In this document: one piece after another, positions 747-60,788 of the stretch
Layout of the letters: every line of letters starts with the position of its first letter
Numbering within the stretch: the stretch's first letter is position 1
IMG/VR virus record: IMGVR_UViG_3300035696_001272
Length of the DNA stretch: 64,000 bases
From: a virus
Taxonomy: Duplodnaviria > Heunggongvirae > Uroviricota > Caudoviricetes
Direction: 5' to 3' (one strand)
Position numbers and translations under genes: made by a program
The notes under the pieces: generated by a model
Databases searched by the model: none
Told to the model about the DNA's origin: nothing
The model's input: only the letters and a program-made list of their open reading frames with translations

Positions 747-751
747 GCGTA

Positions 752-10796: not shown

Positions 10797-11777
10797 ATGG
10801 GCGACAGCGACATCTTAAGTTATACACCAGGTCAACTGGTTACCTTCTACAAGGAAGTCAAAGACGGCTATGATCAACGTACTGATGATGGTTACATCCC
10901 AGTTGTTGCTAGAGTCATTTATCCTGGTCTTACTTTGGCTCCAGGCTATCCACTCAACATGGTTCGTGTGGATGTTGGTCTTTATTATTTCCAATTAACT
11001 CTGCCCTCAGGTGCGTCAGCCATAGGAACTTATTTCGTTGATATCATATTCCTTGATCCGAATACTGGACAGTTATCCAACGATTCTCGACAAATTGTTG
11101 TGACGGCACCATATGGTAACTATGCGGCCTCTTCGTCCAGCGGTAGTCCTACTCCGGTTCCTCCAACTCCTCCACCAAGTGGTGCAACTGGTGTAGCTGG
11201 TGGTGATTTGGCCGGAATGTATCCAAATCCTATCGTTGCTCAAATTCAAGGCATTCCTGTTTCGCCACTCATCCCAACACTTAACCAGTTCTTGCAATGG
11301 AACGGTACGGCTTGGACACCAACTAATTTTCCAGCAGTTCCACCTGTTTTGGATTTGTCATTTCTCTTTGCAAATAATATCGCTACACAAACTATTGCTC
11401 CTGGTGGGGCACAAGTTCAATTTGGTGGAGCATTTGGTTCAATTGAAAATGTTGGAGATCTAATTGCGGTTGAAGGAAACACAACGTTCACGCTTCAGGG
11501 AGGTCACACTTATCGTTTCAGAGGTAACCCAGCCCTCGTAAGTGTAGCTTGTTCTTGGCAGTGGTGGAATGAAACTTTTAATACTGGATTTGGTACAATT
11601 GGCGCCAATATAAGTCCTGCTTTGAGTACAGATGCTGTGGCTTATGCAACGGTTCCTGAAGGAACTGTATACACCATATCATTTAGAATTATTTATGCGC
11701 CTAGTGGTGTTACCGTGGGAGGTAGCACAGTAGGCGGTTTCGTTGGACCATTTATACAAATTGAATCATTGGGTTAA
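10797..11777 (+). CDS. Probable structural protein: N-terminal Ig-like domain, Pro linker, fibre-shaft repeat, C-terminal beta domain
   Basis: N-domain paralogous to 11818 ORF; contains GGDLAGMYPNPIVAQIQG...NGTAWTP unit shared with 17166 ORF; 2 DGY motifs. Confidence 0.6.
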   Translation: MGDSDILSYTPGQLVTFYKEVKDGYDQRTDDGYIPVVARVIYPGLTLAPGYPLNMVRVDVGLYYFQLTLPSGASAIGTYFVDIIFLDPNTGQLSNDSRQIVVTAPYGNYAASSSSGSPTPVPPTPPPSGATGVAGGDLAGMYPNPIVAQIQGIPVSPLIPTLNQFLQWNGTAWTPTNFPAVPPVLDLSFLFANNIATQTIAPGGAQVQFGGAFGSIENVGDLIAVEGNTTFTLQGGHTYRFRGNPALVSVACSWQWWNETFNTGFGTIGANISPALSTDAVAYATVPEGTVYTISFRIIYAPSGVTVGGSTVGGFVGPFIQIESLG

Positions 11778-11792
11778 AAAGAACTCTATTCA

Positions 11793-11803
11793 TAATTTAA
11801 CAT
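11793..11803 (+). promoter_or_regulatory. Putative late-promoter motif TAWWT-N3-CAT
   Basis: TAATTtaaCAT 14 nt upstream of ATG 11818, before GAGG RBS. Confidence 0.55.
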
Positions 11804-11817: not shown

Positions 11818-12342
11818 ATGAGCGGTAATTTGTACTATACGCCAGGACAAACAGTTACTTTCTTTCAGGAAGTGCTGGACGGATATCGTCAACGTGTTGA
11901 CGATGGCTATACTCCAGTTATTACTCAAATACTAAATCCAGCTTTCGTACAACTCTCAGGTTATCCTCAAAATATGATTCGATATGATGTTGGTCTGTGG
12001 TATTTCCAATTTAAACTTCCTAGATTGGATAGACATGATCGTGGTCATGATCATTACAGACATTTTGAACATCAAAGACCTGATCTTAAATGTGTAGGTA
12101 GAGATTTTAGAGATGATAGAGATTTCGTGTTCAGGACGCCCAACACACAAGGAACGAGTGAAAGTTTTGGCAATTGTGACGGATATGTGATAGGCACCTA
12201 TCTTGTTGACATTGCCTATCAGAATCCAGATACTGGGCTTATTGTTAATGATAAAAGACAAATAATAGTCTCCGCTCCATTTGGTATGTTCAATGTTTTG
12301 AGCGGCAAAAGATTTGGTTGTTTTCCGGGGAGGGCATGGTGA
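11818..12342 (+). CDS. Paralogue of the 10797 N-terminal domain with an Arg/His/Asp-rich insertion
   Basis: YTPGQxVTF..EV.DGY.QR.DDGY.PV...IGTY.VDI....P.TG...ND.RQI.V.AP.G aligns with 10797 ORF. Confidence 0.7.
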   Translation: MSGNLYYTPGQTVTFFQEVLDGYRQRVDDGYTPVITQILNPAFVQLSGYPQNMIRYDVGLWYFQFKLPRLDRHDRGHDHYRHFEHQRPDLKCVGRDFRDDRDFVFRTPNTQGTSESFGNCDGYVIGTYLVDIAYQNPDTGLIVNDKRQIIVSAPFGMFNVLSGKRFGCFPGRAW

Positions 12343-15185: not shown

Positions 15186-17135
15186 ATGGTCCACTACGCT
15201 AATCCCATATTAAGTGGTTTAAATAACGCTTTATCACTGGGTGACGGATATTCTGTCACCTTGCAGTGGTTTATTGCCTATCCCGTTAATCCGAACAACA
15301 AAATAGCGTACCATATTTACTACTCCACAGCACAAGATACCGTGTTTGATGAAGGCGTCAAATTTGTGGTCATCGATGGCTCGGTAACAGCCAACATTGT
15401 TGATCTGACGCCAGGTCAAGACTATTGGTTTTCGATGAGACCGGTCGAATATGACCCAACTGTCATTACTTTCCTTCAAAATTTGCCGATCGCACATGAT
15501 AACTTGAGATTTTATCCAAGCAGTATGTTGCGAAGGGATATGACTGCCACAGATTTGATCGTTCCTCTTCTTGATGTAGCCGGATTTCCAAGTTCTGGTA
15601 TTGTCCAAGTCGGAATTGAACTAATTCAGTACCTAGCCGTCGATCCAATCAACCAAAATTTGATTGTACCACCTGGCACTAATGGTACGCCTGCACATTT
15701 GGCCCTACAATCCAATAATCAATACTATTTACCAGGCCCGGACAACGTTGGACAAGGAAGTTTGGCTGGTATAACACTAACCAGTACCAACGCGCCAAAT
15801 GAAACATTCAAAATCCTTTGCTGCGCTGTTGATACAGATGGTTACGGCAATGTTACCACCAAATTCGAAGCTATCGGCACTGTTACTGGCAGTATTCGTG
15901 ATCAATACTCCAATGTAATCACTTGGGAAGCCAATGGCCCATCAATACCAAACGACACTCTGGAATTTTCAGTTGTAGAGACTGCGCAATTCCAGGTTGG
16001 CGATTATTTCACCGTACAAACAATTGGTGCCACTATGGGACTTGGTGGAGGTCGAGGTTTCAACTTTACTCCGATTACTATGCACACAGTTTCGGGTTAT
16101 GACGGCTATCACACTTATAGTCCAATTGTTAGCATGATTGCTATCGAAGAAGATCTGCGTTGGGATAATATTTATGCCTGTCAAGTACGTTTTGAGTATC
16201 CTAACTTTCCATTTACTGTCGTAGATGGCTACCGTCAAGTTCCGATAGACTATTTGTCCACAGATGACTCTGCTGCTGATGCTGCTAACGTTACATTCCC
16301 AATGTACGACTATGCAGGCTATCACAGAACTGATCCTGTGCAACTCTTGGACGGCACTTGTGTCGGAAGCTATATCGGAGGAGAAATGGGATGTATTGAT
16401 GCCTATGGCAACTACAACATCTATCGTGGATTCTCTCTACAAGATCAAAACACGCAGAGAGAAGATGTTCTCTTATCTGTCACTGGACAACCAGCCGTTC
16501 TTATCAAGAGAGTTCAAACGGGCATCACTTGTTCTTGTTATCTAGCATCTAGTGAGTATCCAGACGATCGTTGTCCATTCTGTTATGGTACCAAGTTCGT
16601 GTTTGGTTATGAACAATACTTTAACCCACGTCAATCAGACGGTCGTATCCAAATTAGACTTGGACCAACTGCTGAAAATCTTAAAATGCACGAAGCTGGT
16701 TTGGAATCTGAGTTCCCTCTAGATATTTGGACATTGACTGTGCCAACTATCAAAACCAGAGATGTATTAGTTGTATTCGATCAAGATGACAACGAATCAT
16801 TCCGATACGAAGTTTCAGACGTTATCCGTAACCAAACTATTCTAGGTTTGGATGGCGGTCAGCATCTTAGAACTTTTAGAGTTAGAAAGACCGATCCGAT
16901 CTATCAGATTCGTATCTTTAGAAATACTGCTGACTTCCCAAGTACACTAAATACCAGTTTGGCATTCGTACCAGGAATTCCGCCTCATAGCCACACAGTT
17001 GTCGTAAATGAAAAAGTTTTGTCGGTAAGCCAAATCAATCAAACCACTGGACTTACGCAGGGACATAACCATCCAATTGTAAATGGTGTTGTTCAGACGG
17101 TTTTGGGCCATACTCATCAAATAATCTTGCCATAA
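15186..17135 (+). CDS. Multidomain probable neck/head-closure protein
   Basis: N-terminal FN3-like segment, a domain paralogous to the sheath outer domain, CSC-x11-CPFCYG Cys cluster reminiscent of large-myovirus neck proteins, C-terminal HxH x3; 4 DGY. Confidence 0.5.
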   Translation: MVHYANPILSGLNNALSLGDGYSVTLQWFIAYPVNPNNKIAYHIYYSTAQDTVFDEGVKFVVIDGSVTANIVDLTPGQDYWFSMRPVEYDPTVITFLQNLPIAHDNLRFYPSSMLRRDMTATDLIVPLLDVAGFPSSGIVQVGIELIQYLAVDPINQNLIVPPGTNGTPAHLALQSNNQYYLPGPDNVGQGSLAGITLTSTNAPNETFKILCCAVDTDGYGNVTTKFEAIGTVTGSIRDQYSNVITWEANGPSIPNDTLEFSVVETAQFQVGDYFTVQTIGATMGLGGGRGFNFTPITMHTVSGYDGYHTYSPIVSMIAIEEDLRWDNIYACQVRFEYPNFPFTVVDGYRQVPIDYLSTDDSAADAANVTFPMYDYAGYHRTDPVQLLDGTCVGSYIGGEMGCIDAYGNYNIYRGFSLQDQNTQREDVLLSVTGQPAVLIKRVQTGITCSCYLASSEYPDDRCPFCYGTKFVFGYEQYFNPRQSDGRIQIRLGPTAENLKMHEAGLESEFPLDIWTLTVPTIKTRDVLVVFDQDDNESFRYEVSDVIRNQTILGLDGGQHLRTFRVRKTDPIYQIRIFRNTADFPSTLNTSLAFVPGIPPHSHTVVVNEKVLSVSQINQTTGLTQGHNHPIVNGVVQTVLGHTHQIILP

Positions 17136-19310: not shown

Positions 19311-22300
19311 ATGGTGAATATGAGCAATTATCCAAATGCTTTTGATGACGACAGCACACTTCCAGCTGTAAATGACAATATCGATCAGATTGGTGGCGAT
19401 GCCATTAATGCGCTGAGAGATGCTGTTATGCAAATTGAGATGACTCTTGGAATTAATGTCCAAGGTACGACTCCAAATTTGGCAACTCGTCTACTCACCC
19501 TAATTAACCTAGATGGCAGCCCAAATATTGCTACCTTCACCAGCCTAGGTCTAGTAACCCTTCCAATCTTTAACTTTCAAGTTGCTGATAATGCTGGTAT
19601 CGTAGAATCTAAGCTCACTCTAGACTATCCAACACAAACTCTTTATAACTACATTAGAGACCTATCCAGAGATGTCAATTTGGCACTTGGCTGGATCTCA
19701 GTTACTGGTGTTAAACTAGAGCCTCATCTTATTGGTGTTATCTATCGCCACAATCTATTACAAATTGATGTTGGAGAAAGTCCAGCCCAATTTTTGAATA
19801 ACGTCTTTAGAGTTGCTAGAAATAATACAGACGCTTATACTTTAATCAGTGATATCAACAATGAACTATTGGCTCACCAATGGGCAGATGGTTCGCCATT
19901 CGGCACTATTCAGAATATTACAACCAACAACGGTTCAACATATCCATCCAATTATGCTCACGTAGCTAGCGGTATCTATGTTAACACTAGCAGATTTGCA
20001 GTAATTCCTCAAACGGACACTGATGCACAATCAATATTTGAATACTTTGACAGCAACAGTCTCTTCCTCTTGGGTACTAGAATCCAGAACCTTTACGGTA
20101 ATGGCATCTCCAAGCACTCCACCTCTTCTAGCTTAACAACTGATGGCTATGGACAGCCACTAGTTCCAGTTACTGCGGCCATTGCGTTCTTGAGAGGCAT
20201 GGGTAATAACAGTATTCCAATCGATGATATCGCTATCGGTGATGATATCATTCAATTCCTGCCATCTTCTTCAGTAACCAGCAATAACTCATTCGATGAG
20301 CAATTCGCTCTCGTTAAAGTTGGTGACATTATCAGAGTTAACTATGCTGGTGATGGATACAATATAGAAGTTCCGTTCGTCATCTCTGAGAAAAAATACA
20401 TTCAAGGTGGTGGCAACAAGATTTTCATTGTCAGAATTGCTGGCAAGAATATCATGTATTCTCCAAATGCTACAGCTCGCATCGATAGAGATCTGTACAA
20501 CATCAACAAGTATGGTGTATTGGCTGTTGCTTCAGGTGCAGCTGCCAACTCTTCTGGAACTTCTCTAACAGGACTTATCCCAAGCTTGATTGTAGCTGCT
20601 CCAAGAGGAGCCCAAGCTCTAGGCGTCAATTTTAGTCCGGATCAATTCAACGAATCGCACTATCTGTTGTATCTAGCTTTGTTCACTGACGGTAATCCTC
20701 TAGATGGATACACCATACTACCAGGAATCGACGTCACTGGAAACCGAGGTACTACACCAGGTTCCTATACACTAGATTCTATCGTCACCGCCACTAACAA
20801 TGCTTTTAGACAGCCTGGCTTCAACTATCGATTCATTGCCTTCGAATATCAAGGCGAATTCGGTATCATGTTGGCCGATTCCATAAACAATGCTTCGTTC
20901 TCAATAATTAGCGCTGTGGTCAATGGAAGTGGTTATGATCAGGCCAATACACAACTAAACTTCCCTAACAACGTTATCGATGTCTTTCCAGTTACTGGTA
21001 CTGTGGCGTTGGATCCATTGGGTTTTGGTCCTGCCAACGCGGGTATCGCAAGCCCACCATTCCAGATGTCATACATCACGGCTGAACAAGCTCAGTTCCC
21101 AACTATCTTGTTGCCACCACTTAGACGTAATAACTACTATGTTGATGGAACCGAACGTGAATTGCTCAACTTAGACGTTGGCCAGGTGTTGGACACCTAC
21201 GGTGATGGTTATTGGGTTGCTACTGTTGATGGTTATTCAAACAACCCAGGTCCACCAGGACATACTACGGTTACTTACAATATCCCACTAGATTTGTCAG
21301 CTTCCGGATTGAAGATAGGCAAGACTTTAATTGTCCAGCAATTAGGAAACAATCTAGGATTGGTCAACTACGGTCGTTTCATTATCCAGAATGTTACATT
21401 CAGCTGCTGTCCACCAATTGAAACTCAAATCACTGTATATGACGGTGTTCATGCCACCGGCGTTTCACCATCCATAGTCGCTCCAATCGGATCCCAAGTA
21501 GCTATCTACTTCAGTTCATCTTCTGTATCTTTCAATGCTGAGACTGCCACGGATTTCTCTCCAGTTAGCGCTCCATTCAAGAGACACTTCGAACTTTACG
21601 TTGATGATAATGGCAACACTTACACTCACGAAAGAGGCAGACTCAGTATTACTGGTAATGTCGTTGTTAACGGAGTAACTCTATACAACAGTTTGCCACA
21701 GTTGGGACAACTTGATATGGTTAGCATCTCTCCAAAGTTGAGAGGATATCAATTTGGTTCTGTTAACAAAATTACGCTACAAATATCCAGCTTCAACTCC
21801 ACTACCGGTATCCTTACTGCTAATTTGGCTGAGTTTAATGGAGGCCCATTCTCAAGACCGGGCCCAGTCACTTCTGGTAAGGTCGGTGAAGTAATCAAGT
21901 TCTACGATGAAACGAACATCGATTATATCGAAGTCATCTTTGAGTTTGGTAATACTATTCCAACTTTCTCTAACCAATATATTGATTTCCAGTTGTTCCC
22001 AAGCCTAGCCTTGGATGGCGAGATCATGATACTCGCTTCTTGTCAAGAGCGTACCGATACGAATATCGTTGACCACATTGTAGATCTACGACAGTTCGGA
22101 AATATTACTGAAAACGAACTAAGCACTTCTGCTCTCAATTTGATATCGGCATCTGACAGACTGTTACATTTCAATGGTGTAATCAGAGGATTTGATGCTA
22201 CAGTGGCAGGGGGTTATGCAACCAGCGGATTACTTACTCTAACAGGTGGATTGGCTCTGGCCAATGGTGATTTGCTGTCCATTAACGATCAAATATTCAC

Positions 22301-25232: not shown

Positions 25233-26060
25233 ATGGGTACTAATAATTTCTCTAAAACAGACCTGAATAATATCTACAATATCGTTCAATCTTCGATGAT
25301 AGTGTATCCAAAGGAAATCATTATTGCTACATTACGTGATTTCTTTTCACAGGATAGTTATTACCATTTTTCTAAGGATCAATGGGGATTTGCAAACACA
25401 ACAGATCACACCGATCTGCCACCCGGAGCCGACTTGCCTAGAGGGCCGGGTGCTAACCCACAATTGAACCCGAGCCCAATTCTGCCCACTCGTATCTTCA
25501 TTGGTGAAAACTGGAGATACGATGCTATTTTTTATCCTGCTATCCTGGTTAAGAGTGGCGGCACTAGATATGTACCAATTTCTATCAATCGTAACCAAGG
25601 CGGCATTGAGTTTAGTAAAATTCTCTTTGCGGATGGGTATGGTAATGAAACAGCTATCTACAGACCTGTGGCCGTCGTAACAAATGGTGCTTGGGAAGGG
25701 TCAATTTTGATAGATGTTATGAGCAGGAGTTTAAGAGCTAGAGATGATTTGGTAGAGCTAATTGGAATGTGTTTCACAGAAATACATTTCGACACACTAC
25801 ACGACATAGGCATTATAGTCAAGCCAATTACAGTCAGTGGCACAACCGAGACAGACGACCGAAACGACAAGCTATTTAGGCAAACTCTAACATTAGATAT
25901 AAGAACTGAGTGGAAGAGAGTGATACCAATAGAGAATACTATTGACTCTATTTTCTTTACAGCCACCTTTTCAGATTTGTCGCAGCCAAACAGCCCAATA
26001 GCAGCCAATCTAACTATCAATACAGAAGTTGGTATGGTGGATATGCTACTAAATATGTAA
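25233..26060 (+). CDS. Probable tail terminator/completion protein
   Basis: Directly upstream of sheath; YPAILVK...GSILIDVMSRSLRARDDLVELI...LFRQTLTLDIRTEW pattern fits tail-completion proteins; mostly synteny. Confidence 0.55.
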   Translation: MGTNNFSKTDLNNIYNIVQSSMIVYPKEIIIATLRDFFSQDSYYHFSKDQWGFANTTDHTDLPPGADLPRGPGANPQLNPSPILPTRIFIGENWRYDAIFYPAILVKSGGTRYVPISINRNQGGIEFSKILFADGYGNETAIYRPVAVVTNGAWEGSILIDVMSRSLRARDDLVELIGMCFTEIHFDTLHDIGIIVKPITVSGTTETDDRNDKLFRQTLTLDIRTEWKRVIPIENTIDSIFFTATFSDLSQPNSPIAANLTINTEVGMVDMLLNM

Positions 26061-29060: not shown

Positions 29061-29774
29061 ATGACTTCGAGTTCAACTTATCCACAAACAGGTTCAACCT
29101 TATACGTACCAGGCGGAAGTACTACAGTTGGTGCAATTAACGTAACTGCTACATCAATTGCTACTAACATATTGATTACAGTTAGAAATCCAAATGCTCC
29201 AGGTGGTTATGTACCAGTAGGTGCAGTTCAGTCGATGGCTATTTCCGAAAGACGTCCACTTAAGATGATTGATGAAGTTGGAACAGATGGTCATATTGAC
29301 TCTACTCCAAATCAATCTACAAACATCACTGGAACTTGCCAGAGAGTAAGATTCGATCAATTAAGAGTTGCTGAAGCTTTTGATAGAAGCTTTTTGCATG
29401 CATCAGCTCAAGTTTATCCTTTTGATATTATCATTTTCGATAAACAAAAATTTGTTACAGGTAGCCAAATTCAAACGGTTATTAAGAACGTTTGGATCTC
29501 TGGTATTGATTATACTTACCAAGTTACTGACTGGGTTATCACAGACAGCATGACCTGGGAAGCAGAAACAATCTTTAGCATGACCCTTGGTGGCAACCCA
29601 GCTGCTCAAGGTGGATACAACCAGATTCAGTCCTTCCAGCAAGGCAATCCAGCTTGGATTGAAGTTGCAACTGATATGGGTCTCAATGGTAGAAGAGGTT
29701 CTTTGGATGCTGCCGGACTTATCGATATTGGTTCTGCCAACTACGGTACTGTCAATACAACCAACATCTTCTAA
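29061..29774 (+). CDS. Tail tube protein
   Basis: Immediately after sheath; VGAVQSMAISE...IDEVG hairpin and beta-rich core consistent with tube fold. Confidence 0.8.
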   Translation: MTSSSTYPQTGSTLYVPGGSTTVGAINVTATSIATNILITVRNPNAPGGYVPVGAVQSMAISERRPLKMIDEVGTDGHIDSTPNQSTNITGTCQRVRFDQLRVAEAFDRSFLHASAQVYPFDIIIFDKQKFVTGSQIQTVIKNVWISGIDYTYQVTDWVITDSMTWEAETIFSMTLGGNPAAQGGYNQIQSFQQGNPAWIEVATDMGLNGRRGSLDAAGLIDIGSANYGTVNTTNIF

Positions 29775-50071: not shown

Positions 50072-53000
50072 CAGCTATCCTTAGAATCGTTAACGTAATA
50101 ATCAATAGTAGCTCTAGTATCGACGTATTTTTTACGGAAGATCTAACTCAAAATTTGGTTCCAGCTAACGTTTCCATACTTTCACAAACTGCTAATGTGC
50201 CTGATTCACAGGTTTTACAGGTTACTGTAAGTACCAATGTCTTATCTATTACCTGTCAACCGTTGATTCCATACGCAGCCTACTATTTACAATTTCAGTC
50301 AACACCCAACAATCCGTTCATCTCAGTTAATGGCGATGCCAAAATTTCTCAAGATGGAGTTTCTAACAAATTCCTAATCACTGGTCCATTACAGTCAGAT
50401 AATCCAGTCATGGATTACTTGCAATCCTTTTATCAGAATAACATTTATAATGCCAGTGATACCACTACTATAATCAATGGATATCTACAATCTATCGCTG
50501 TCAACTTTTCCAGAGCCCTTTATGATATTAGACAGAGTAAAAATGAAAACTATCTGTCATTCACAGTAATTGATGAATTACACACCAGAGGAGAAGGTGC
50601 TTTTGACAGATTGTATGAAGAGGCTGCCTATGATATTTTTAGAGTTGGTTATGCGCCAACCAATGCAGCCGTAAATACATCTTTCGTCTTTACTGACTTT
50701 CCATACTTTCCAGTTACATTGCAGAGACAAATAGTTACAGAAGCCAGTGTGCCAAGCTCCAATAATGAAAATGGCACTTTCAATATAAACACGCTAACTT
50801 TCAACCTAAAGAATAATCCAGTCACTAAAGTTGATAGCATAGTGTTTACTCTAACTACTGCAAATCCTGTCTATACCTACAACATTCAAGATCTAGGATA
50901 TCAACTCTTAGACTCTACATTCGACCAGGCTTATGCGTCTAGCTATTTATTGTTGGAACCTAATCAAGTTAGGTTGAATAGCGCTATTTTGCAGGACCCA
51001 AATTTTTCACTGGATCAAATTTTCAGCATTACTATTCAATACGAGTATAAAGAACTTGGTATTGAAGTGGACGAAACCACGGTAGAGGTTTTTACTACAC
51101 TACAATCTGTAAGAGAAGTTCTGCCACCAATTATCAACATCTTCAGTTTGCAGCACGCTCCAATAACGGACGCCAGTAACAATATTCCGACACTTGGTGG
51201 AGTGGTATTCACAGATCCAAACTCTAATACCGGCGCACCACATCCAGCTTTTATAACTGAAATTCCATTCAGTTTGAGTGCATTACCATCTGTACCAGGA
51301 ATCTATTCTATAGATTATCCTACAGCAACAGTTTATGTATACGGCGCAAGCTCAACCAATGATGGTACAGGCCCATCTCCCCCACTAGCTACCTATTACT
51401 ATAGATTTACCTATGTTTCGCAGGTCGATTATGTATACGATCCCGATTCATTGGAGCTTGTAGCGTTGCCACTTGGTAACTTACTAAACTCCCCTGGCAC
51501 CATCAATTTCAACTACGAACAGGTTCTAGTTCCTGGCGTCGATTATGTAGCCGATTCCCACATTGAATCCATCAATGAAAGAATTCTAAATAATCTAAAT
51601 GCGCTCAATGAACTAACTACCCAAAACTCTCCAATCACTAATGTGTTTCAAATTTATAATGAAACTTCTGGAGAAATTTATCTATTGGATAGATGGAACG
51701 ACAATAAAGTCTACTTCAAGTTCAATAAGCCGCCCCGTGTTTTGCAGGAAGTTGGGGAAAGAGCTACTTTTGCAACCGTTTCAAATGAATTGCTAGGAAT
51801 CAATGCTACATCAACTAACGGTGGTGGCGTTAGGATTTTTACTATCTTCTTAGCCAATAACACAATCATCAACTCTTCACAGGACGGCATTGCCGCTTCC
51901 TTTAATACCAGTTTGATCTTCACTGACGGTAATGTATTCGTTACTGAAATTTGGTATGATAGAGAGTTCGACGCTGCCTTCAATATAAACAAATTATCTG
52001 TTGGTCAATATACTGTTGACTATGAGAATGGCATCATCTACGTAGCCGTTTCTAATACACAAGACAATGACATAGGCACTGCTACATATAAAATGGATAG
52101 CATTGTACCTGACTTCCCACATATTATTAGCGTAGACGATATTTACTATCAAATCAGTGTTCTCAATCCAAAGAACAAACAGTTTTCTTACATATCATTT
52201 ACAGATGGCGCCATAGTTCCAGCTAATTTAGATGTTTCGGACGAAGCTTACCTCAACAATGTTACATCATCTCCATTTCAATTAATCAATGGAATGGTGG
52301 GAGCTTTCGTAGATGGCACATTTGTACCTGGTGTAACTTACGCCGTCAAATTTGTACGTAGCGTGTACGAGTTTAATGATCTAACTCACAACACTAACCC
52401 TATCAACTTTGCTTTCGTCAGTACTAGCAATAATTTTAACATCACAGTTGGTTCTATTAACAAACAATCTTTTGAGAGCGTGCAGTTTGATGGAACTAAT
52501 TATTTCATTACACTAAATGAAAATATTCCTTACTTATCTCCGGACATTCAGTACACATTTAGTGTGGTCAGAGTTTCAGACTCTCAACAACTTTGGAATG
52601 GTTCTGGAACTATAGTTCCTGGTAACCCGCTCAAGTTGATTTTGCCTGGAATAGGATCTCCACATCTTGGCGATCTAGTTGATGTTACCTATTCTTTTAC
52701 CATTAGCCAAGCTGCCAGAGTAATTGTGGATTATAACAAGGGAGATTTCTTTGTTGATTACACCTATTTGGCTGATGAAATTTTGGTTAGCTACGAATAC
52801 GGTGATAACGTACTAGATTTCAGTCAGAACACCAATCTACCTACTGGAACACAGTATTATGTTTCCTACAAAGCTGGTGCTCTACGTGATGCCTTGCTAC
52901 AAAACTTTGGAACACTCGTTAACGTACCTGACTTGTCAACCTTTGATTTGAGCCTAAATAGAGAGCGTTATCGTGAAGCCCTGCAAGCCGCACTATCCTC

Positions 53001-56000
53001 CTTTATTCAAGGACCAACAGTTGCTGCTATTAAGAATTTGGTACAGATAATTACCCACATAGAACCTCAACTAATTGAATCAGCATTTGAGGCTTGGTCA
53101 CTGGGTAGTGGATTACTATTCCCGGCCGGTATACAAACAACTGGAAGTTTTCAATTATTGTCGGCACATTTTGGTAATGGTGTTTTGATTGATCAGCCCG
53201 ATCAAACCATAACCATGCCAATCAATTCAAATATTAGATTGGAAGAGGGCACCTTTGAAACTTGGGTTTTGCCACAGTGGAATGGTTTGGATAATGATGC
53301 CGCTCTCACGTTCACCATTACTAGAAACAATTTACCTATTGACGCATTCAGAGTATTTATTGGTGGTTCGGAATATCACCCAACCATTACTAATGGCTCT
53401 TTTACAATTACTAAACAGTCTAACGTAACCGGAAATCCAAATACGAATAAAGACGGCATCTTCATTTATTATGCTAATGACATGTCTGGAAATTTCCAGC
53501 GTTGGTACCTAGAGGTCATCGATGGCTATGTGTCTCCTAACAATAATACTTACAAATTCACAATTGCCTCCAGTGGTAAATTCTATGATGTTAAACCTCT
53601 TAGTGTCGTTAAGCCAGCTAACATGACTACCTTTACCGGTACCAACAAAGTCACCATGACAATTACACCGCTCATGGATGGCTATGGTATCGATGAAGGA
53701 TTAACTTTCATATCAGATCTAGAACATTACATCTTAGATTTTGGTTTGGAACAGGATAGAAGCAGATTCTCTATTTACAAAGATCCTAGTGGATATTTGA
53801 ACTTCCGAGTTTATGGAAGAGATCGCAAAATGTATATGGTCAGTGCCGATGTTTCATCTTGGAAAGTCAACCAAGCACACATGGTTGGTGCATCGTGGAA
53901 ACTCAATACTAGAAATAACCGTGATGAGATGCACCTCTTCGTAGACGGCCTAGAAGTACCAAACATTATAAAATACGGTCAAAAGCTACAACCGTATCTG
54001 CATGAGAAGTTCAGGACTGTCGATCCAGAAGAGGTTGTGGGATTGGCTACCCGAGACATTGTTGGTTCCGACGATTTAGTTACTACAGCTGGCAGTCCGG
54101 TTGTAACTTCTAGTATAAACTTTAGCGCATTCCATATCTTCGTGGGCGATCCTATTTTCATCAATGAAACTGGATTTTCTACAACGGGCTACACGATTGA
54201 ATCTATCAACGGACAGACGCTATCTCTTAATGCTCCTATGCCATTGAGTTTAACCAATGGTAAGTTCTCTGTCAATCAAACTCAATATTTTATCACTTCA
54301 GAAATTAACATCGTACCAAATATTGCCGTTTCCACTATTCACACATTCATAGAAGGTAGTGATTTATCAGGAACAGCAGGTAGCCCTAATGTTTCCTCTG
54401 GAACTAATTTTACAACCAGTGGTGTTGAACCTGGGTACTCAATTAGAATCGTAGATGGATACTCATCACCAGTTGTCTATACAATTGTACAGGTAGCTGG
54501 CAATACTCTTACCATTACAGATTCTTTACCAGTTAATCTGTTGAATGCGACATACTATATCTATTCTAATACTGAAAATGAAATACCTGGCGTCCGTGCC
54601 CTTGATCCTGCCTATAGTATTAGTCAAGATGCTAACTTCGATAACGTACTAACTATTTTCAATGATGTATTCGCTAATGATTTAATTCTTGTTAGAACTT
54701 TGGGCCTTAACTTCCGTGATATCAGCAAACAGTATTATGTTTGGAGCAACCAGGTGGAAAATGTTTTAATGACTCAACTACCTCCTCCAATTGATTTGGA
54801 TCAGGCGGACATCACTAGGATCATTTTACCATCTGTAGCTATTGGACCGGCCAATTCTACTTTGATTAGTGGAGTATTCGTTTCCAACCAACTGCCGACT
54901 GCACAGCCTTCCAATTCACAAACTGGTAGAAGCATTCAAGCCACAATTAGTGGAACTAATGTTGACTTTACCACCCCAGTTGAAGTTACTATTCATGGTG
55001 TGACTGGTATCACCACAATTACTGAAACTATTACATTTACCGATTATGGCACTTTAAATTTTGCTAACCTATATGTTCAAGTCGACTACATACAAGTAAA
55101 TGCCAAACCACTCAATTCATCTAAAAATGTTTTAGCTATTGTTGTTGAAGAAAGATATCCTATCACCTACAGTGAATTCGATGAATTGGTTCCAGTGGTT
55201 AGATATAGCTATCCAATTAATGCTGGTTACAATTTACAAACAGATGGTTATGATGGTTACAGTTTCGTTAGAGACGGATACAACTTCTTTAGCGGACTTG
55301 ATATTGGTAATTATTTGGTTATCAATTCACCAGCTTCGGTGGCAGGTTATTACATAATCACCGGATTGTCAACTGATAGACATGGTATCAGTATACAGTC
55401 AACTGTTGCATCTGTCCCAACTCCTTTGCCGCAATTTACAAATGGAGTTTATCAAGTACTTAATGTGACTGCGTACCGCAGTGGATTGCAAAACGGATTC
55501 TTTACTTTGGAAATGTCTGATTTGCCTGGCCAGCCTTATTTCTTAGATCAGGGAACGTATGAATTAGATTATTCGACTTATGCTAGCATAAAGTTTGATC
55601 ATCTCAATGGCAACATCTACTTTGGTAGTGATTTCATGGGCAACAATCAAGCTAATTCAATTTTGAACCAGGCAATTAGCTATTCTATCATGTTGACTGA
55701 TACACGAATTGGAGAAGTAGTAATGGCTAATAGTTTATCTATTACCAAAGACTATAACTCACTAACTCCTATTCAGCCGAATGCCAATATTTTGTTCCTG
55801 ATTAGCTTTAATAATTTTCCGTTCACTAACAGTGCTAGCTTTTATTCTAACACGAACGATGACCATATGCACTTCCAATCTGATTGGGTTGTTAACGATA
55901 ATTTCGGACAGAGCATAGTAATACTGGACGAACCTATTTTAGTTCCTAATACCGGAATACTTGATACTAGAAAACAAGGCACCATTGAATTCTGGATGAG

Positions 56001-57222
56001 CCCAATATTTGATACTGCTAATGATCCTAATGTTAGATACTATTTCGATGCCTACGGGGCTGTTGTAGAAGAGGTTACCAGTGTCAGTAACGTAGCTGTC
56101 AAAGTATCAACACCGGCCAGCCAAATTTTGAAAGTCACTCTAACCAACGGTAACCAGAAGATTGATTATTTTGCTGGTGGTAAGCTAGAAATAGATACTC
56201 AAAATGCTATTCAAGAAGATAGCGTCAGTATTGGTACCAGCACAGTTATCGTGTCGGAACCAATTCTACAAGTGATTACAGTAAAAATAGCTGGAGACTT
56301 TACAGGAACAGACTATTTCGATGGTGGATCAATTGGTACTGATATGAAAACAATCTACTTGGGTAAAGTGTTACCAGTCCCAAATTTGAATTTGATTGTG
56401 ACATATCAGAGTACTCTTAACCAGAATACACATTTTAATACGCAAGTCATTAGACTCAATAGAGCACTACCGGCACAAAATTCTCAAGTAACAGTCACTT
56501 ACATACCAAGCGGTTTGCAGGGAGACAGAATATCTATATTTAAAGATGAATACGGTTACATAAACTTCGGGATTATAGCTTCTGGTACCGATTTCGTAAT
56601 CCGAGCACCAACTCGTTGGGCAAGAAATACCTGGCATAGGGTCAAAGCTAGCTACATGATAAATGGTGGTATGGGCAATGACGAAATGAGACTGTTCCTC
56701 GATGGATATCAATATACTGATGTCCTGTTCGGTTCAGGTCTAATCTTTGGAAAGTTTCCATTTGTCATGGGTCAAGTTAACGTTGGTGATGGTTATGCTT
56801 TGATTAGTAGTATTACCTTCAAGGACCCAATTAATGATTTGTTTATTGGAACTGATTATACACAATCAAATCCAATCTTCACTTTACTGGATAATTTCCG
56901 AATCAGCAACATCTCTCGTCCAATTTATGCACCTTATGGTGAGCCAATTGATGTCAACTACAGCAACAACTTGAGTACTGTCTTCCCAGTGACAGCAGAC
57001 TTGTATACTACGTACCTGATGAATTTCGATACAATGATCGCTCTAAATACCAATTTTGCTACGTTAGTTGATAGAGAAACTGGTGCTTTTGATTTTACCC
57101 TTAATATCTTCGATTCTTTTGGTATAGTTAGTAGTAGTGCCCAAGTACAACAAGTATTGGAAAACCTTATTAATATCCTGAAACCAGCAACCAGTCAGGT
57201 GTTTATTAAGTATATTACCTGA
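50068..57222 (+). CDS. Giant baseplate wedge protein (gpI/gp7-like) with LamG/ConA-like domains, 2384 aa
   Basis: ERYREAL...QGPTVAAIKNLV and terminal LINILKPATSQVFIKY; LamG-like GTFETWV/GTIEFWM, WHRVKASY...MRLFLDG, LDNFRISN; ATGA overlap with J; 8 DGY. Confidence 0.72.
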   Translation: MTAILRIVNVIINSSSSIDVFFTEDLTQNLVPANVSILSQTANVPDSQVLQVTVSTNVLSITCQPLIPYAAYYLQFQSTPNNPFISVNGDAKISQDGVSNKFLITGPLQSDNPVMDYLQSFYQNNIYNASDTTTIINGYLQSIAVNFSRALYDIRQSKNENYLSFTVIDELHTRGEGAFDRLYEEAAYDIFRVGYAPTNAAVNTSFVFTDFPYFPVTLQRQIVTEASVPSSNNENGTFNINTLTFNLKNNPVTKVDSIVFTLTTANPVYTYNIQDLGYQLLDSTFDQAYASSYLLLEPNQVRLNSAILQDPNFSLDQIFSITIQYEYKELGIEVDETTVEVFTTLQSVREVLPPIINIFSLQHAPITDASNNIPTLGGVVFTDPNSNTGAPHPAFITEIPFSLSALPSVPGIYSIDYPTATVYVYGASSTNDGTGPSPPLATYYYRFTYVSQVDYVYDPDSLELVALPLGNLLNSPGTINFNYEQVLVPGVDYVADSHIESINERILNNLNALNELTTQNSPITNVFQIYNETSGEIYLLDRWNDNKVYFKFNKPPRVLQEVGERATFATVSNELLGINATSTNGGGVRIFTIFLANNTIINSSQDGIAASFNTSLIFTDGNVFVTEIWYDREFDAAFNINKLSVGQYTVDYENGIIYVAVSNTQDNDIGTATYKMDSIVPDFPHIISVDDIYYQISVLNPKNKQFSYISFTDGAIVPANLDVSDEAYLNNVTSSPFQLINGMVGAFVDGTFVPGVTYAVKFVRSVYEFNDLTHNTNPINFAFVSTSNNFNITVGSINKQSFESVQFDGTNYFITLNENIPYLSPDIQYTFSVVRVSDSQQLWNGSGTIVPGNPLKLILPGIGSPHLGDLVDVTYSFTISQAARVIVDYNKGDFFVDYTYLADEILVSYEYGDNVLDFSQNTNLPTGTQYYVSYKAGALRDALLQNFGTLVNVPDLSTFDLSLNRERYREALQAALSSFIQGPTVAAIKNLVQIITHIEPQLIESAFEAWSLGSGLLFPAGIQTTGSFQLLSAHFGNGVLIDQPDQTITMPINSNIRLEEGTFETWVLPQWNGLDNDAALTFTITRNNLPIDAFRVFIGGSEYHPTITNGSFTITKQSNVTGNPNTNKDGIFIYYANDMSGNFQRWYLEVIDGYVSPNNNTYKFTIASSGKFYDVKPLSVVKPANMTTFTGTNKVTMTITPLMDGYGIDEGLTFISDLEHYILDFGLEQDRSRFSIYKDPSGYLNFRVYGRDRKMYMVSADVSSWKVNQAHMVGASWKLNTRNNRDEMHLFVDGLEVPNIIKYGQKLQPYLHEKFRTVDPEEVVGLATRDIVGSDDLVTTAGSPVVTSSINFSAFHIFVGDPIFINETGFSTTGYTIESINGQTLSLNAPMPLSLTNGKFSVNQTQYFITSEINIVPNIAVSTIHTFIEGSDLSGTAGSPNVSSGTNFTTSGVEPGYSIRIVDGYSSPVVYTIVQVAGNTLTITDSLPVNLLNATYYIYSNTENEIPGVRALDPAYSISQDANFDNVLTIFNDVFANDLILVRTLGLNFRDISKQYYVWSNQVENVLMTQLPPPIDLDQADITRIILPSVAIGPANSTLISGVFVSNQLPTAQPSNSQTGRSIQATISGTNVDFTTPVEVTIHGVTGITTITETITFTDYGTLNFANLYVQVDYIQVNAKPLNSSKNVLAIVVEERYPITYSEFDELVPVVRYSYPINAGYNLQTDGYDGYSFVRDGYNFFSGLDIGNYLVINSPASVAGYYIITGLSTDRHGISIQSTVASVPTPLPQFTNGVYQVLNVTAYRSGLQNGFFTLEMSDLPGQPYFLDQGTYELDYSTYASIKFDHLNGNIYFGSDFMGNNQANSILNQAISYSIMLTDTRIGEVVMANSLSITKDYNSLTPIQPNANILFLISFNNFPFTNSASFYSNTNDDHMHFQSDWVVNDNFGQSIVILDEPILVPNTGILDTRKQGTIEFWMSPIFDTANDPNVRYYFDAYGAVVEEVTSVSNVAVKVSTPASQILKVTLTNGNQKIDYFAGGKLEIDTQNAIQEDSVSIGTSTVIVSEPILQVITVKIAGDFTGTDYFDGGSIGTDMKTIYLGKVLPVPNLNLIVTYQSTLNQNTHFNTQVIRLNRALPAQNSQVTVTYIPSGLQGDRISIFKDEYGYINFGIIASGTDFVIRAPTRWARNTWHRVKASYMINGGMGNDEMRLFLDGYQYTDVLFGSGLIFGKFPFVMGQVNVGDGYALISSITFKDPINDLFIGTDYTQSNPIFTLLDNFRISNISRPIYAPYGEPIDVNYSNNLSTVFPVTADLYTTYLMNFDTMIALNTNFATLVDRETGAFDFTLNIFDSFGIVSSSAQVQQVLENLINILKPATSQVFIKYIT

Positions 57223-57230: not shown

Positions 57231-60200
57231 ATGACAAAACGCGCCCCAGTATCAGTACAAAGACCAATTTGGTATGATTCACAGCAGGTGGATGAAACAG
57301 ATATGAATTCTGAGCAGACCGCCAATGTTACCATTGAGTCTTCTACTATCGATAATCATGTTGGTAACGGCGTTTTGCCAGAAGACCTGGTAAATCATGT
57401 ACTTTTCGATTCCTCTCTGGCCGTAGGATTCTTGGACGGTTTGGCTATCCAAACACAAAGTCAGCCTTCTGATAACAACTTTGGTAACCAGCTAGCCATC
57501 ACTCTGAGCAATTCAACGGCTTCGGGTAAACGTCAAGTCAAGGTATGCGTCATTGGATTGGATTTTAACAGCGCTCTCCAATATGAAGAGTTTTACTTTG
57601 AGACCAATGAGACACAGGTAAGTAGACGTCACTTTACTGAAATTTTGGTTCTTCTATTTAATGACTTCATTGGCGATCCTGATCTGTCTTTTAATTTAGG
57701 TGGTCGAATTGTTATTTCTGAAGCTAGTCCAATGACTCTTTCTAGAGATGTCATTATGATCGCTCAAGATCAACAGCCTAATCTATTTTTTAGAGACTTC
57801 TTCCTAGATCCTTCCATTAGCCAACTAACATTACAGGCAATGTTGCAAGCTGCAATGCCACTGTATAACGTAACCGATTTGAATATTTACACCGAGCCAT
57901 TGGATAACTTGGTTTTGTCAAGTGGAGATGTGACTACACAAATTGGCCAAAAGTTTCAAGCTACGACTAACAATATTGAGAAAGTAACTCTATTACTATC
58001 GGTCAGAAACCTTAGTGCAGGTCAACAAAATAATTTAGTCTGGACTGGCGATATCATAGTCAGCATTTATCCATTGCAGACAACAATAGATTGTCCAACT
58101 GATTTAGTACCAAATCAAGCAATTCAATTTTCGCCATCCAATATCCCAATTGCCCAAATCAGCTACAACTATAATAGTTTGCTAGCTGCTGGTACATTGT
58201 TGGATTCAGTTCCACAACCAGTAGATTTCGTATTCAGCAATAGCTCGGTAGCTGGCGGTAACGTAATGACCGTTGGACAGTATTACGCCGTTGCTATGAA
58301 GCGTTCTGGTGCGGCTAATCAGTGTGATATCCTATTGGCTGTAGGTCAGGACTTAGTTCCAAATTCTGAAATTACGACGTTCTCAGGTAATCTATGGGTT
58401 GATATTCCAGATGAAGACTTATGGTTCAGAATTTGGACAGATGCTGCTAAGGTATCTGATGGTCAAGCTTATGACCAGGGTAATGGAGTAATTATCCCAA
58501 AAACCACAACCGATCCAACCACACAAGCTACGATCGATTATATTTTCGGACAACAAGAATTCGTTGGCGGTGATGTTTTTAGTGCAGTACTGGCAGCCGT
58601 TACACAAGATTCTGATCCAGTACCCGATCAAAGAACTGGTAATCCGGTCGATTCTCGTCAACAGTTTGTTCCTCAAGTTACTTTATTGAATACCATTGAC
58701 GTTACTAATCTAGAAAATTCTTCCGAGCCACTTATTTTGGGAGCAATATCTGACAGGAACATCAAATTCTTCGATCCAAGTCAGGCTACAAGCAACGCTC
58801 CATTATTCAGTGCGACTATGGCTAAGGATGAGTTGCTCATTAGAATTGTAGAAGATCCTACTGATGCAGTCAGATTCAATACACAAGTCAATGCTTTGGT
58901 TACAAGTTTATTAAACGGTAACTTAGTTGGAGCAGAAATTATTCCAGATGCTAGCAAGCCAACCGCTTTCTATAGAATAGCTGGTGCCAGACTATGTTCC
59001 ATGATTGTGGGAGATGTTGATGGTAATGGTATTATCGATGATAACGATTTAAACTTACTCAATAGCTTTTTAGGTTACAACCTCAATGTTGGTTTGCCAG
59101 CCCACACAGTAATTACAACTGATGGTTACACCACAACTTTCACAAACGGTTACCAAACCCTAACTCAACCATTTTCTAACTTATTCAATATTAGTTTCCA
59201 ATTGATTGATCCAAACGATGGTTACGTGGTAGCTCATGGTAGTGATGGTGTATTGGTAGCCAATCCAACTGATCCAACATTAGCTCAATTTACTAGTGCC
59301 AGTGTATCATTCGTTGACATCATCGGTCTAAGCTCTTATAACTTAGTTATCCTAAGCAATGGGGCGAATGAAGCTGATTGGGGTGGTTGGGTAATTACTG
59401 CTTTAGATTCAACTGCAGACGTATTGACTCTTCAAAAGATCTACCTAACCGGTGACACTATTGCTCAAATGTTGAGAGCTGATATTGATGGTGATTTTGC
59501 TATTACTTTCTCTGATGGTTATCTGTTGGATAGCTACATCGAAAGAGTTCAAAATCCAGTTATTCCTCCTCCATTATATCCTGCTCCAACAACTAATCCG
59601 TATAATAAGATTGGTACTAGATTTAATGTAATTAGACTGAGACTAGAAGAATTTGTTGACAGAGCAGACGATTACGCTTCAGATCCAAATACACGTGCCC
59701 AATCCGTGCATCCAATACAAGACATCTTTGATGGTGATGGATATTTCGCCAGCCACAATTTCTATACTGGTCCATCCCAAATGATATTTATGCAGCAATT
59801 AATTTGGGATCCTACTTTGGTAGTAGCTAGCGCTCTGCCTAGACTTGTGCCAGCTGTATTTACTTCAGAGACTGGATTCGTGCAAAACTCTTGTACCATC
59901 GAGGGTGTTCAGTGCAACGTTTATCCAGTGGTACAGCCATTTGATCCAGGACGAGTTGACTTCTTCGTGCCAAATAATCTGATAATTGGAGAGGGTGGAG
60001 AACTTCAAAGACCAGATGGTGATTTCTATAAGGTAGACTTTGAAGTTGGAAGCATTGTTCTAGAGATTCCAGATGGATTATTTGGAACTGAAAGAACCAT
60101 CGATATTATGACAGACTTCATAGTTGACTATACTGGAAATGGTGCAACACGTCTAGGATTCCCTTCAATGAGATTCGCAGACTGTTCTTTCGTCACCGCC

Positions 60201-60788
60201 AATGCTTTGGCCGATGATCAAATTAGATTCTCTGTTGCCGTTCAGTCCTTCTCTCCTAATATAAACGGTGAAAGTTCTGACGGATATTTCGGAGCTATCG
60301 TTGATGGTAAGATGGGCGTCAGTATGGATTTCGATACTGGATTGCTAACTCTAAACTTCAGCAATTTGTATCAAGATCAAGTACTACAGACTTTGAGTAC
60401 CAAAGTACAAGTTAACGTCTTCCTAAAGAAGGGCGGATTCAATAACCAAACTCTATTTGTGGATTCTACACAAGTAGGTAACATATTGAATTTGATCAGC
60501 ATCTTTAGCGGAGCCAATGTCGGCGGTCCATCAGCTTTGGTAGATTTGCAGAACGATATAGCTCCAGATAGTATTCTACCAATTTTGAATGGTGGTACTG
60601 GACTGGATAACGTAGGTGCTTTTGGTACTGTATTAACGAGTACCGGTAGTGGCGTCAGTTATCAATTCGTAACAGCTGCTAGTGTGGAGTATAATCCGGC
60701 TAGCTCAGCAAATTGGAATAATAATCCTCCAACAACTATTCAAGCGGCACTGGATCGTATTGCGGCTATGATAGGTCCAATTACATAA
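57231..60788 (+). CDS. Baseplate/fibre-attachment protein with dockerin-like Ca-binding loops, 1185 aa
   Basis: N-terminal WYDSQQVDETDMNSEQ resembles baseplate-anchoring starts; GDVDGNGIIDDNDLNLLNSFL and ADIDGDFAITFSDGYLLDSYI; 5 DGY. Confidence 0.6.
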   Translation: MTKRAPVSVQRPIWYDSQQVDETDMNSEQTANVTIESSTIDNHVGNGVLPEDLVNHVLFDSSLAVGFLDGLAIQTQSQPSDNNFGNQLAITLSNSTASGKRQVKVCVIGLDFNSALQYEEFYFETNETQVSRRHFTEILVLLFNDFIGDPDLSFNLGGRIVISEASPMTLSRDVIMIAQDQQPNLFFRDFFLDPSISQLTLQAMLQAAMPLYNVTDLNIYTEPLDNLVLSSGDVTTQIGQKFQATTNNIEKVTLLLSVRNLSAGQQNNLVWTGDIIVSIYPLQTTIDCPTDLVPNQAIQFSPSNIPIAQISYNYNSLLAAGTLLDSVPQPVDFVFSNSSVAGGNVMTVGQYYAVAMKRSGAANQCDILLAVGQDLVPNSEITTFSGNLWVDIPDEDLWFRIWTDAAKVSDGQAYDQGNGVIIPKTTTDPTTQATIDYIFGQQEFVGGDVFSAVLAAVTQDSDPVPDQRTGNPVDSRQQFVPQVTLLNTIDVTNLENSSEPLILGAISDRNIKFFDPSQATSNAPLFSATMAKDELLIRIVEDPTDAVRFNTQVNALVTSLLNGNLVGAEIIPDASKPTAFYRIAGARLCSMIVGDVDGNGIIDDNDLNLLNSFLGYNLNVGLPAHTVITTDGYTTTFTNGYQTLTQPFSNLFNISFQLIDPNDGYVVAHGSDGVLVANPTDPTLAQFTSASVSFVDIIGLSSYNLVILSNGANEADWGGWVITALDSTADVLTLQKIYLTGDTIAQMLRADIDGDFAITFSDGYLLDSYIERVQNPVIPPPLYPAPTTNPYNKIGTRFNVIRLRLEEFVDRADDYASDPNTRAQSVHPIQDIFDGDGYFASHNFYTGPSQMIFMQQLIWDPTLVVASALPRLVPAVFTSETGFVQNSCTIEGVQCNVYPVVQPFDPGRVDFFVPNNLIIGEGGELQRPDGDFYKVDFEVGSIVLEIPDGLFGTERTIDIMTDFIVDYTGNGATRLGFPSMRFADCSFVTANALADDQIRFSVAVQSFSPNINGESSDGYFGAIVDGKMGVSMDFDTGLLTLNFSNLYQDQVLQTLSTKVQVNVFLKKGGFNNQTLFVDSTQVGNILNLISIFSGANVGGPSALVDLQNDIAPDSILPILNGGTGLDNVGAFGTVLTSTGSGVSYQFVTAASVEYNPASSANWNNNPPTTIQAALDRIAAMIGPIT

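Follow-up and report, generated by a model that had tools for sequence, protein, structure and literature searches.

The tripeptide Asp-Gly-Tyr (DGY) recurs in the tail genes of an uncultured huge phage, represented by the IMG/VR virus record IMGVR_UViG_3300035696_001272, and the present analysis addresses its distribution there and in related phages. The stretch of DNA analysed, hereafter the window, comprises 64,000 nucleotides and corresponds to the tail region of this phage. A sequence-only reading of the window had counted 36 DGY in ten structural open reading frames (ORFs) and none elsewhere, and had proposed the motif as a candidate modification or docking sequon. We translated the 38 large ORFs of the window, which are referred to here by their start positions, and counted DGY in each. 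Every one of the earlier counts was reproduced: the ten named ORFs, 9,981 aa in total, contain all 36 occurrences. The remaining 10,703 aa contain none, and these include ORF 779, in which none of the 14 Asp-Gly (DG) dipeptides is followed by Tyr.

All ten DGY-bearing genes lie on the plus strand. The first two encode a 326-aa protein without family assignment (10797..11777; DGY at aa 23 and 31) and a 174-aa protein (11818..12342; DGY at aa 21, 29 and 121), which are paralogous at their N-termini and in which every DG is part of a DGY (2/2 and 3/3, respectively). They are followed by a 649-aa neck or sheath-related protein (15186..17135; DGY at aa 20, 218, 306 and 347), a 1972-aa protein (19311..25229) whose five sites (aa 278, 348, 465, 632 and 640) all fall in the N-terminal third, and, just 5' of the sheath gene, a 275-aa protein (25233..26060) with a single site at aa 134 that is kept in 9/10 aligned sequences, the window counted. 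The tail sheath protein (26198..29029), recognized by Pfam sheath domains at aa 757-938, carries its one DGY at aa 419, outside the conserved C-terminal core, and this site is kept in 11/13 aligned sequences. Farther downstream are a 709-aa protein (41537..43666; DGY at aa 307, 442 and 622), a baseplate J-like protein (45977..50071; Pfam E 2.6e-28, aa 67-280) with all four DGY (aa 357, 572, 887 and 929) beyond the J domain, and a 2384-aa protein (50068..57222) in which 8/18 DG are DGY (aa 1152, 1204, 1463, 1726, 1729, 1736, 2212 and 2241). The last of the ten is a 1185-aa peripheral baseplate protein with dockerin-like loops (57231..60788; DGY at aa 631, 663, 762, 836 and 1017). Its conserved N-terminal part spans approximately aa 1-637 and all of its DGY sites lie at the end of this part or beyond it; the DGY-bearing C-terminal half is not matched by more distant orthologues.

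These numbers far exceed what the composition of the proteins predicts. Per-protein composition gives an expectation of 3.2 DGY in the window against the 36 observed, an approximately 11-fold excess; it rises to 5.0 when the DG counts are held fixed, and to 8.7 under a first-order Markov model, into which the motif itself already enters. Among all 8,000 tripeptides none deviates as strongly as DGY (Poisson 2.5e-25), GGG coming second (7e-7), and 400 residue shuffles yielded a mean of 3.26 DGY and a maximum of 9. Tyr follows DG in 36/81 cases in the ten ORFs vs 0/54 in the remaining proteins (Fisher p 2e-10). With approximately two DGY expected in the remaining proteins, their zero is by itself compatible with background, so that within the window it is the difference between the two protein sets, and not this zero, that reaches significance. 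In the ten ORFs the three residues depend on each other, such that DGx is completed by Tyr in 36/81, xGY by Asp in 36/66 and DxY by Gly in 36/56 instances, and permutations of the motif (YDG, GYD and others) are at background.

The signal resides in the proteins and not in the DNA: of 37 coding-strand matches to GAYGGNTAY 36 are in frame 0, the opposite strand has 3 matches, and different DGY sites use different codons. The earlier statement that the motif is not a DNA repeat is thereby borne out, and a DNA-level repeat or a restriction or methylation site was rejected on the same two grounds. Given also that the signal recurs in approximately 100 related contigs, chance, composition bias, a DNA repeat or a mis-called frame is left with a practically negligible probability, and we count this explanation as refuted.

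Comparison of paralogous domains shows the motif at differing sites. ORF 15186 aa 168-277 aligns with sheath aa 119-244 (126 aa, 38% identity, E 3e-17), and DTDGYGN in the former stands opposite QRNAMNQ in the latter. Similarly, baseplate J aa 884-950 aligns with sheath aa 523-590 (46% identity, E 3e-8), with TDGYL opposite TDGTL and NNDGYYD opposite NN-GLYD. These are the pairings given in the sequence-only reading, and its proposal that DGY is selected at the protein level, at new sites in paralogous domains, is supported and can be extended to orthologous domains.

GenBank phages gave no DNA match to the window and only remote matches to the sheath; the relatives considered here are IMG/VR contigs, including a collinear record of 480,838 bp (G001). 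The enrichment recurs in approximately 100 of these contigs. Of the related contigs with enough sequence for a judgement on DGY density (L075, L081 and L086 were too short and were left out), almost all show a 6- to 21-fold enrichment in the tail region, and the enrichment persists down to approximately 43% identity of the J protein. When approximately 45 relatives were grouped by orthology, DGY exceeded expectation 28-fold in orthogroup 41537 (81 observed vs 2.9 expected), 23-fold in 57231 (178 vs 7.7), 14-fold in both 50068 (293 vs 21) and the sheath (26198; 19 vs 1.4) and 12-fold in J (45977; 98 vs 8.0), and the counts were 8 vs 0.4 in 25233 and 18 vs 1.6 in 19311. Across the whole of G001 there are 81 DGY vs 20.7 expected, and in its two structural blocks 64 vs 5.4.

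Other genes of the same tail regions present a different picture. In the window, the seven plus-strand ORFs between the sheath gene and ORF 41537 (29061..41479), which by gene order are the tube, chaperone, tape-measure, hub and spike equivalents, have no DGY. Nothing in Pfam or PHROGs matched the tube, tape measure, hub and spike candidates, so these labels follow from gene order only. In relatives, DGY in the genes between sheath and ORF 41537 is at or below background, with none at the tube, chaperone and tape-measure positions. Orthogroup 34257 has no DGY among 134 DG (7.9 expected), 39374 has 3 vs 5.4 and 43666 has 1 vs 2.7, and the small ORFs after the sheath together with the enzymes have none (approximately 3 expected combined).

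Two of three control phages lack a comparable excess: Bacillus phage G has 4 DGY in its tail region vs 2.45 expected, and Eggerthella phage LE2-3 has 4 vs 4.0. The structural region of T4 has 6 DGY in annotated genes, or 10 vs 2.66 by crude ORF calling, which is at most a weak excess and far below the 11- to 28-fold enrichment of the clade. Phage G and LE2-3 thus do not show the likeness of generic virion proteins that the sequence-only reading had named as grounds for giving up its proposal. Within the clade, L019 was at first taken for a DGY-free natural knock-out (1 DGY vs 1.2 expected), and this was discarded when a longer, 225-kb scaffold gave 6 vs 1.2. Its distal baseplate protein has four of the six, and the four matching window ORFs (41537, J, 50068 and 57231) have approximately 20. 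With a count of 6 vs 1.2 and with the GT4 glycosyltransferase gene discussed below present, L019 counts as a lineage of low DGY density instead of a null; searching for relatives with longer sequence returned only L019 itself.

DGY-rich proteins also occur elsewhere in the relatives. Outside the structural blocks, G001 encodes a Kelch-repeat beta-propeller (98306-99553; 3307-4554 in L022) adjoining a UvrD-like helicase. In this propeller Tyr follows every one of the six DG; three of these sites lie in Kelch blades (DGYIY.FGG and the variant DGYNLYIFGG) and three elsewhere. Additionally, a 279-aa ORF (G001 351354-352193; 3355-4194, minus strand, in L023), in which 4/5 DG are DGY, adjoins an AMP-binding (adenylate-forming) enzyme (G001 352184-353587; 4184-5587, minus strand, in L023) that is possibly another modification enzyme. 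One clade member (L186; JAIXLO010000160.1, 383 kb) lies in a Chitinophagales metagenome-assembled genome bin, either a hint of a Bacteroidota host or a binning artefact. A host-wide DGY system was rejected: the Chitinophagales bin gave 261 matches vs 316 for the control in a crude DNA-pattern test, and hence no excess.

The motif is strict with respect to its residues. In tripeptide counts pooled over the DGY-rich orthogroups of the relatives, DGY was observed 729 times vs 46 expected, compared with 78 vs 59 for DGF, 2 vs 6 for DGW, 96 vs 63 for NGY, 0 vs 23 for EGY, 93 vs 66 for SGY and 30 vs 39 for DAY. Asp, Gly and Tyr are all needed, and DGF, DGW, NGY, EGY and DAY count as unenriched. That neither Phe nor Trp replaces Tyr points to the hydroxyl group. 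The absence of EGY runs in the opposite direction to the DGY excess. Around 242 non-redundant sites the flanking sequence is essentially uninformative, apart from a weak preference for Pro at +3 and a slight upstream increase in hydrophobic residues; DGY is, in this sense, a strict short motif with uninformative flanks, as a sequon would be.

The positions of DGY, by contrast with the identity of its carriers, are fluid. Orthologues of ORF 50068 have from 1 to 16 DGY per protein, distributed over 44 distinct alignment columns in 31 sequences, and 33 of these columns are occupied in at most 10% of sequences; J, 41537 and 57231 show a similar pattern of turnover. A few sites are old and conserved, and most are young. 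The Asp and Gly often predate the Tyr, and at the same columns relatives read DQY, SGY, DGV or DNS. The flanks of the DGY sites in the window are somewhat less conserved than the whole proteins (approximately 0.49 vs 0.57 identity), and sites are often paired, 4-8 residues apart. In Kelch blades (DGYIY.FGG) and in dockerin-like calcium loops (DGDGY, SDGYLL), the Tyr takes the place of the residue that usually follows DG. Such a strict, position-independent and repeatedly gained tripeptide on a fixed set of outer tail proteins is sequon-like behaviour.

The structural setting of DGY was read from AlphaFold2 (AF2) models of ORFs 41537 and 57231, which together contain eight sites. The model of ORF 57231 matches peripheral baseplate chains of phage phi812. 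In it, the site at aa 631 forms a three-residue hairpin connection, that at aa 762 lies at a helix N-terminus in a dockerin-like repeat, that at aa 836 at a helix end and that at aa 1017 in a low-confidence loop. The sites at aa 663 of this protein and aa 442 of ORF 41537 are loops terminating at the first residue of a strand, and those at aa 307 and 622 of ORF 41537 are coil. In terms of secondary structure all eight are thus loops, turns or the ends of helices or strands, and their differing settings indicate that DGY is not one fold element. A type I' beta-hairpin turn was rejected as the common element, with 2/8 modelled sites forming hairpin connections and NGY unenriched by the counts above.

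The same two proteins have further features. ORF 57231 contains dockerin-like calcium-loop repeats at approximately aa 590-615 and 750-775 (GDVNGDGIID..DL and DIDGDF.IT..DGYLL), the second of which includes a conserved DGY. The model of ORF 41537 comprises long hydrophobic helices followed by an invasin/intimin-like immunoglobulin (Ig) domain; the helices, which are very long, lie in the N-terminal third (aa 75-231), which also has several invariant Cys residues, and from this architecture the protein looks like a membrane-active or membrane-inserting tail component.

Most large ORFs of the window belong to no family recognized by Pfam or PHROGs. Besides the sheath and baseplate J proteins, Pfam matched a patatin-like phospholipase, a LigT/2'-5' RNA-ligase-like protein and a HAD-like hydrolase. 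The patatin-like phospholipase (7667-8527; E 1e-29) is encoded among structural genes and has a counterpart of 56% identity in the 480-kb relative. The 205-aa LigT/2'-5' RNA ligase superfamily protein (13627-14244) is encoded inside the virion gene block on the opposite, minus strand, and matches the anti-CBASS Acb1 family below threshold (E 1.2e-5, 25.5 bits vs a cut-off of 27 bits); it may be a cyclic-nucleotide phosphodiesterase directed against host defence. A 540-aa ORF (17166-18788) with 20% glycine and no DGY is flanked by two DGY-bearing neck genes.

Directly 3' of the last large tail gene, Pfam identified a GT4 glycosyltransferase, a GT2 glycosyltransferase and an Fpg/Nei DNA glycosylase. 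The GT4 gene (60876..62012, plus strand) matches Glyco_transf_4 (1.4e-8, 35.4 bits vs a cut-off of 28.5) and, below the 26.4-bit cut-off, Glycos_transf_1 (3.7e-5, 23.8 bits). The EX7E motif (E269-X7-E277) is invariant in seven orthologues of 53-82% identity, and this motif and the profiles of GT-B family 4 / group 1 together place the protein in the GT4 family; its relatives in the PDB are distant (E ~1e-3). GT4 was present in every record that covers the region, and in 67/67 related loci recovered with GT4 it follows the distal baseplate gene. Across these loci, the 10 kb upstream of GT4 contain 792 DGY vs 47.6 expected, and the 10 kb downstream 21 vs 30.3.

The genes beyond GT4 form a variable sugar cassette, to which the GT2 gene (62003..62779, plus strand) belongs. 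Copies of GT2 are found in 57/67 loci, an NDP (nucleoside diphosphate)-sugar dehydratase/epimerase in 44/67, and a conserved 330-aa ORF of no recognizable family beside the glycosyltransferases in 42/67; another sub-lineage has instead a Glyco_trans_1_2 enzyme, a PglD-like acetyltransferase and a DegT-type aminotransferase. L019 has a 333-aa ORF and an epimerase, with no GT2 nearby. GT2 was rejected as a reader of DGY, since DGY-rich relatives can do without an intact copy: the gene is missing from G012, and in-frame stops interrupt it in G006 and G015. The interruptions are single TGA or TAA codons in the orthologues at G006 72547-73299 and G015 69509-70204, and could be a pseudogene, an assembly error or recoding. 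Just after the cassette, 43/67 loci encode a TubZ-like tubulin homologue (L111 16176-17531; approximately 6 kb downstream of GT4 in G001), and a GH25 lysozyme lies further on.

We consider it probable, if well short of certain, that something reads the DGY motif. Under this interpretation, DGY would be a short linear recognition tag, selected repeatedly in one large clade of huge phages to mark exposed loops and turns of proteins in the neck, sheath and outer baseplate, and the reader would be an enzyme that modifies the tyrosine hydroxyl in the cytoplasm as the tail proteins fold or assemble. The best candidate for this enzyme is the GT4 glycosyltransferase, whose gene immediately follows those of the tail and which would start a glycan that its variable neighbours (the GT2 copies and NDP-sugar dehydratase/epimerase, or elsewhere the Glyco_trans_1_2, PglD-like and DegT-like enzymes) might supply or extend; a conserved GT4 beside a varying cassette is what an initiating enzyme with lineage-specific glycan extension would look like. 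The existence of a reader, its identity with GT4 and Tyr O-glycosylation as its chemistry are all three what we infer from these patterns. Our favoured yet tentative reading, to which we assign somewhat less than an even chance, is that DGY tags exposed loops in the manner of a sequon, with Tyr glycosylation as the most plausible modification. More doubtful is the complete proposal, an undescribed phage-encoded system in which a cytoplasmic glycosyltransferase reads bare Asp-Gly-Tyr and coats the exterior of the tail and baseplate with lineage-variable Tyr glycans.

Several observations weigh against tyrosine glycosylation by GT4. With no lineage found that lacks GT4, the link between gene and motif is adjacency in one syntenic clade and not co-variation. 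Moreover, the DGY-poor L019/L088 lineage keeps GT4 at 51% identity, and the gene appears split in two DGY-rich records, which may be an assembly error. The clade has no cultured relative, and the nearest GenBank phage glycosyltransferases are approximately 22% identical. Phage glycosyltransferases can glycosylate DNA instead of protein, and a DNA glycosylase gene lies beside those of the window. As for a DNA hypermodification route, three near-complete genomes yielded no Tet/JBP-type gene in a search whose control was uninformative, and one of the three has thymidylate-synthase-like genes. A cytoplasmic enzyme reading a bare tripeptide should also modify chance DGY elsewhere in the proteome, but the other 566 ORFs of G001 have 11 DGY vs 15.1 expected (p 0.18), no clear avoidance. 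Finally, some proteins are unmarked. The major capsid protein of G001, found by PHROGs (major head protein, E 2.9e-81) and without a match to Pfam Phage_capsid, has no DGY, and neither have the three large plus-strand ORFs of unassigned family at 779..7554 (20 DG), which the sequence-only reading had called a fibre cluster, nor their G001 orthologues, counted over those of the window ORFs at 5-6304 (24 DG). The motif is consequently not virion-wide, contrary to the earlier claim. Of the earlier rule that it marks outward-facing proteins, the part that stands is a fixed subset of neck, tail and baseplate proteins; the presumed fibre cluster (0 of approximately 45 DG with orthologues) departs from it. 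Outward-facing is thus an insufficient rule, and the 779-7554 ORFs are an unexplained exception if they are exposed.

Each of the explanations other than chance that dispense with a modifying enzyme fails on at least one observation, because of the residue specificity, the heterogeneity of settings or the turnover of sites. It is unlikely, in our estimate, that there is no reader and that an exposed Tyr beside Asp on a tight turn simply constitutes a weak binding patch for multivalent, reversible adhesion, for example to host capsule, extracellular polymeric substance (EPS), cell-wall glycans or particles. The location of the carriers in the peripheral baseplate, neck and sheath, the close pairing of sites at 4-8 residues, which suits multivalency, the adhesin-like Ig and jelly-roll-type domains of ORFs 41537 and 57231 and a turnover resembling that of surface features would all agree with such a role. 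A generic patch, however, should also function with Trp or Phe in place of Tyr and with Asn or Glu in place of Asp, and these variants are unenriched; adhesion also leaves the Gly requirement and the absence of DGY from the 779-7554 ORFs unexplained. We regard as distinctly unlikely a non-covalent docking motif for a phage-encoded decoration, chaperone or assembly protein on the outer tail. Docking would account equally well for the strict specificity and the fixed set of carriers, and several small DGY-rich ORFs without assigned function lie in the structural blocks, but three residues in at least six structural settings make a poor protein-protein epitope, the high positional turnover is hard to square with an ordered decoration lattice, and no candidate binder was identified.

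A structural preference, in which a DG turn followed by Tyr stabilizes beta-hairpins or loops in huge beta-rich proteins and the clade has drifted toward it, receives a lower probability still. It is in keeping with the greater conservation of D and G than of Y at several sites (the outgroup keeps D at many), with the 2/8 modelled sites that are classic hairpin connections and with the weak excess in T4 (6-10 vs 2.7). Yet NGY and DGF should serve equally well in a turn and are unenriched, the settings are heterogeneous, beta-rich inner proteins of the same phages lack DGY, sites are gained and lost rapidly instead of being conserved with the fold, and phage G and LE2-3 have no excess. Asp-Gly is the sequence most prone to succinimide formation, which favours spontaneous or autocatalytic chemistry, whether succinimide/isoaspartate formation, cleavage or an Asp/Tyr cross-link that hardens the virion. 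We nonetheless consider such chemistry very improbable: the strict need for Tyr is unexplained, cross-links need fixed partner positions and these sites turn over, and cleavage at 5-8 internal sites would fragment the proteins.

If the reading of DGY as a modification sequon is correct, phage virion proteins would have their first defined tripeptide acceptor motif, and with it a rare instance of tyrosine-directed modification; the tail surfaces of huge phages would then differ chemically from what their sequences lead one to expect, which would matter for host recognition, stability and defence evasion and for reading cryo-electron microscopy maps. Should the tyrosine glycan also prove right, a new sequon, a new acceptor chemistry in phages and a new layer of virion surface diversity would be added. 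DGY would furthermore give a sequence rule for predicting exposed proteins in uncharacterised huge phages. Even without a reader, a clade-wide, position-independent, 11- to 28-fold enrichment of one tripeptide is unusual protein evolution that needs explanation.

A literature search on the DGY or Asp-Gly-Tyr motif found no published description, and we therefore compare it with systems that share some of its features. In mycobacteriophages, virion glycosylation by phage-encoded glycosyltransferases was reportedly demonstrated by Freeman and colleagues in 2023, on Ser/Thr-rich C-terminal extensions of capsid and tail-tube subunits. As in those phages, glycosyltransferase genes lie here beside structural genes and the outer virion proteins are the presumed targets. 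The candidate acceptor in the present clade is instead a Tyr in a strict tripeptide, known from sequence alone, the capsid and tube-position proteins lack the motif, and the phages are unrelated huge myoviruses. Established three-residue sequons include N-X-S/T and the Bacteroidota O-glycosylation motif D-(S/T)-(A/I/L/V/M/T), and DGY resembles them in being a minimal tripeptide with uninformative flanks, presumably placed on exposed loops, and in turning over fast, such that density is kept rather than position. However, the known sequons act on Asn or Ser/Thr, mostly outside the cytoplasm via lipid-linked donors, whereas the possible acceptors in DGY are Tyr and Asp, and tail assembly in phages is cytoplasmic; DGY also does not fit the Bacteroidota motif, even though one member of the clade was binned with Chitinophagales.

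The major capsid protein of chloroviruses is glycosylated at atypical sequons by virus-encoded enzymes. There, as proposed here, the virus supplies its own cytoplasmic glycosylation machinery for a non-canonical short acceptor motif; unlike the present case, chloroviruses are giant viruses of eukaryotes with N-linked glycans on the capsid protein, and in the huge phages the capsid protein is unmarked and the tail proteins carry the motif. Tyrosine O-glycosylation itself has a precedent in bacterial S-layer proteins, with beta-Glc-Tyr and beta-Gal-Tyr linkages in Paenibacillus alvei, Thermoanaerobacter and Thermoanaerobacterium (PMC2943079), in a review whose text uses neither 'consensus' nor 'sequon'. 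Transfer to S-layer proteins differs from what we propose for DGY, in that it is carried out by a membrane O-oligosaccharyltransferase during secretion and involves few sites per protein, but these proteins establish that prokaryotic surface arrays can bear Tyr glycans.

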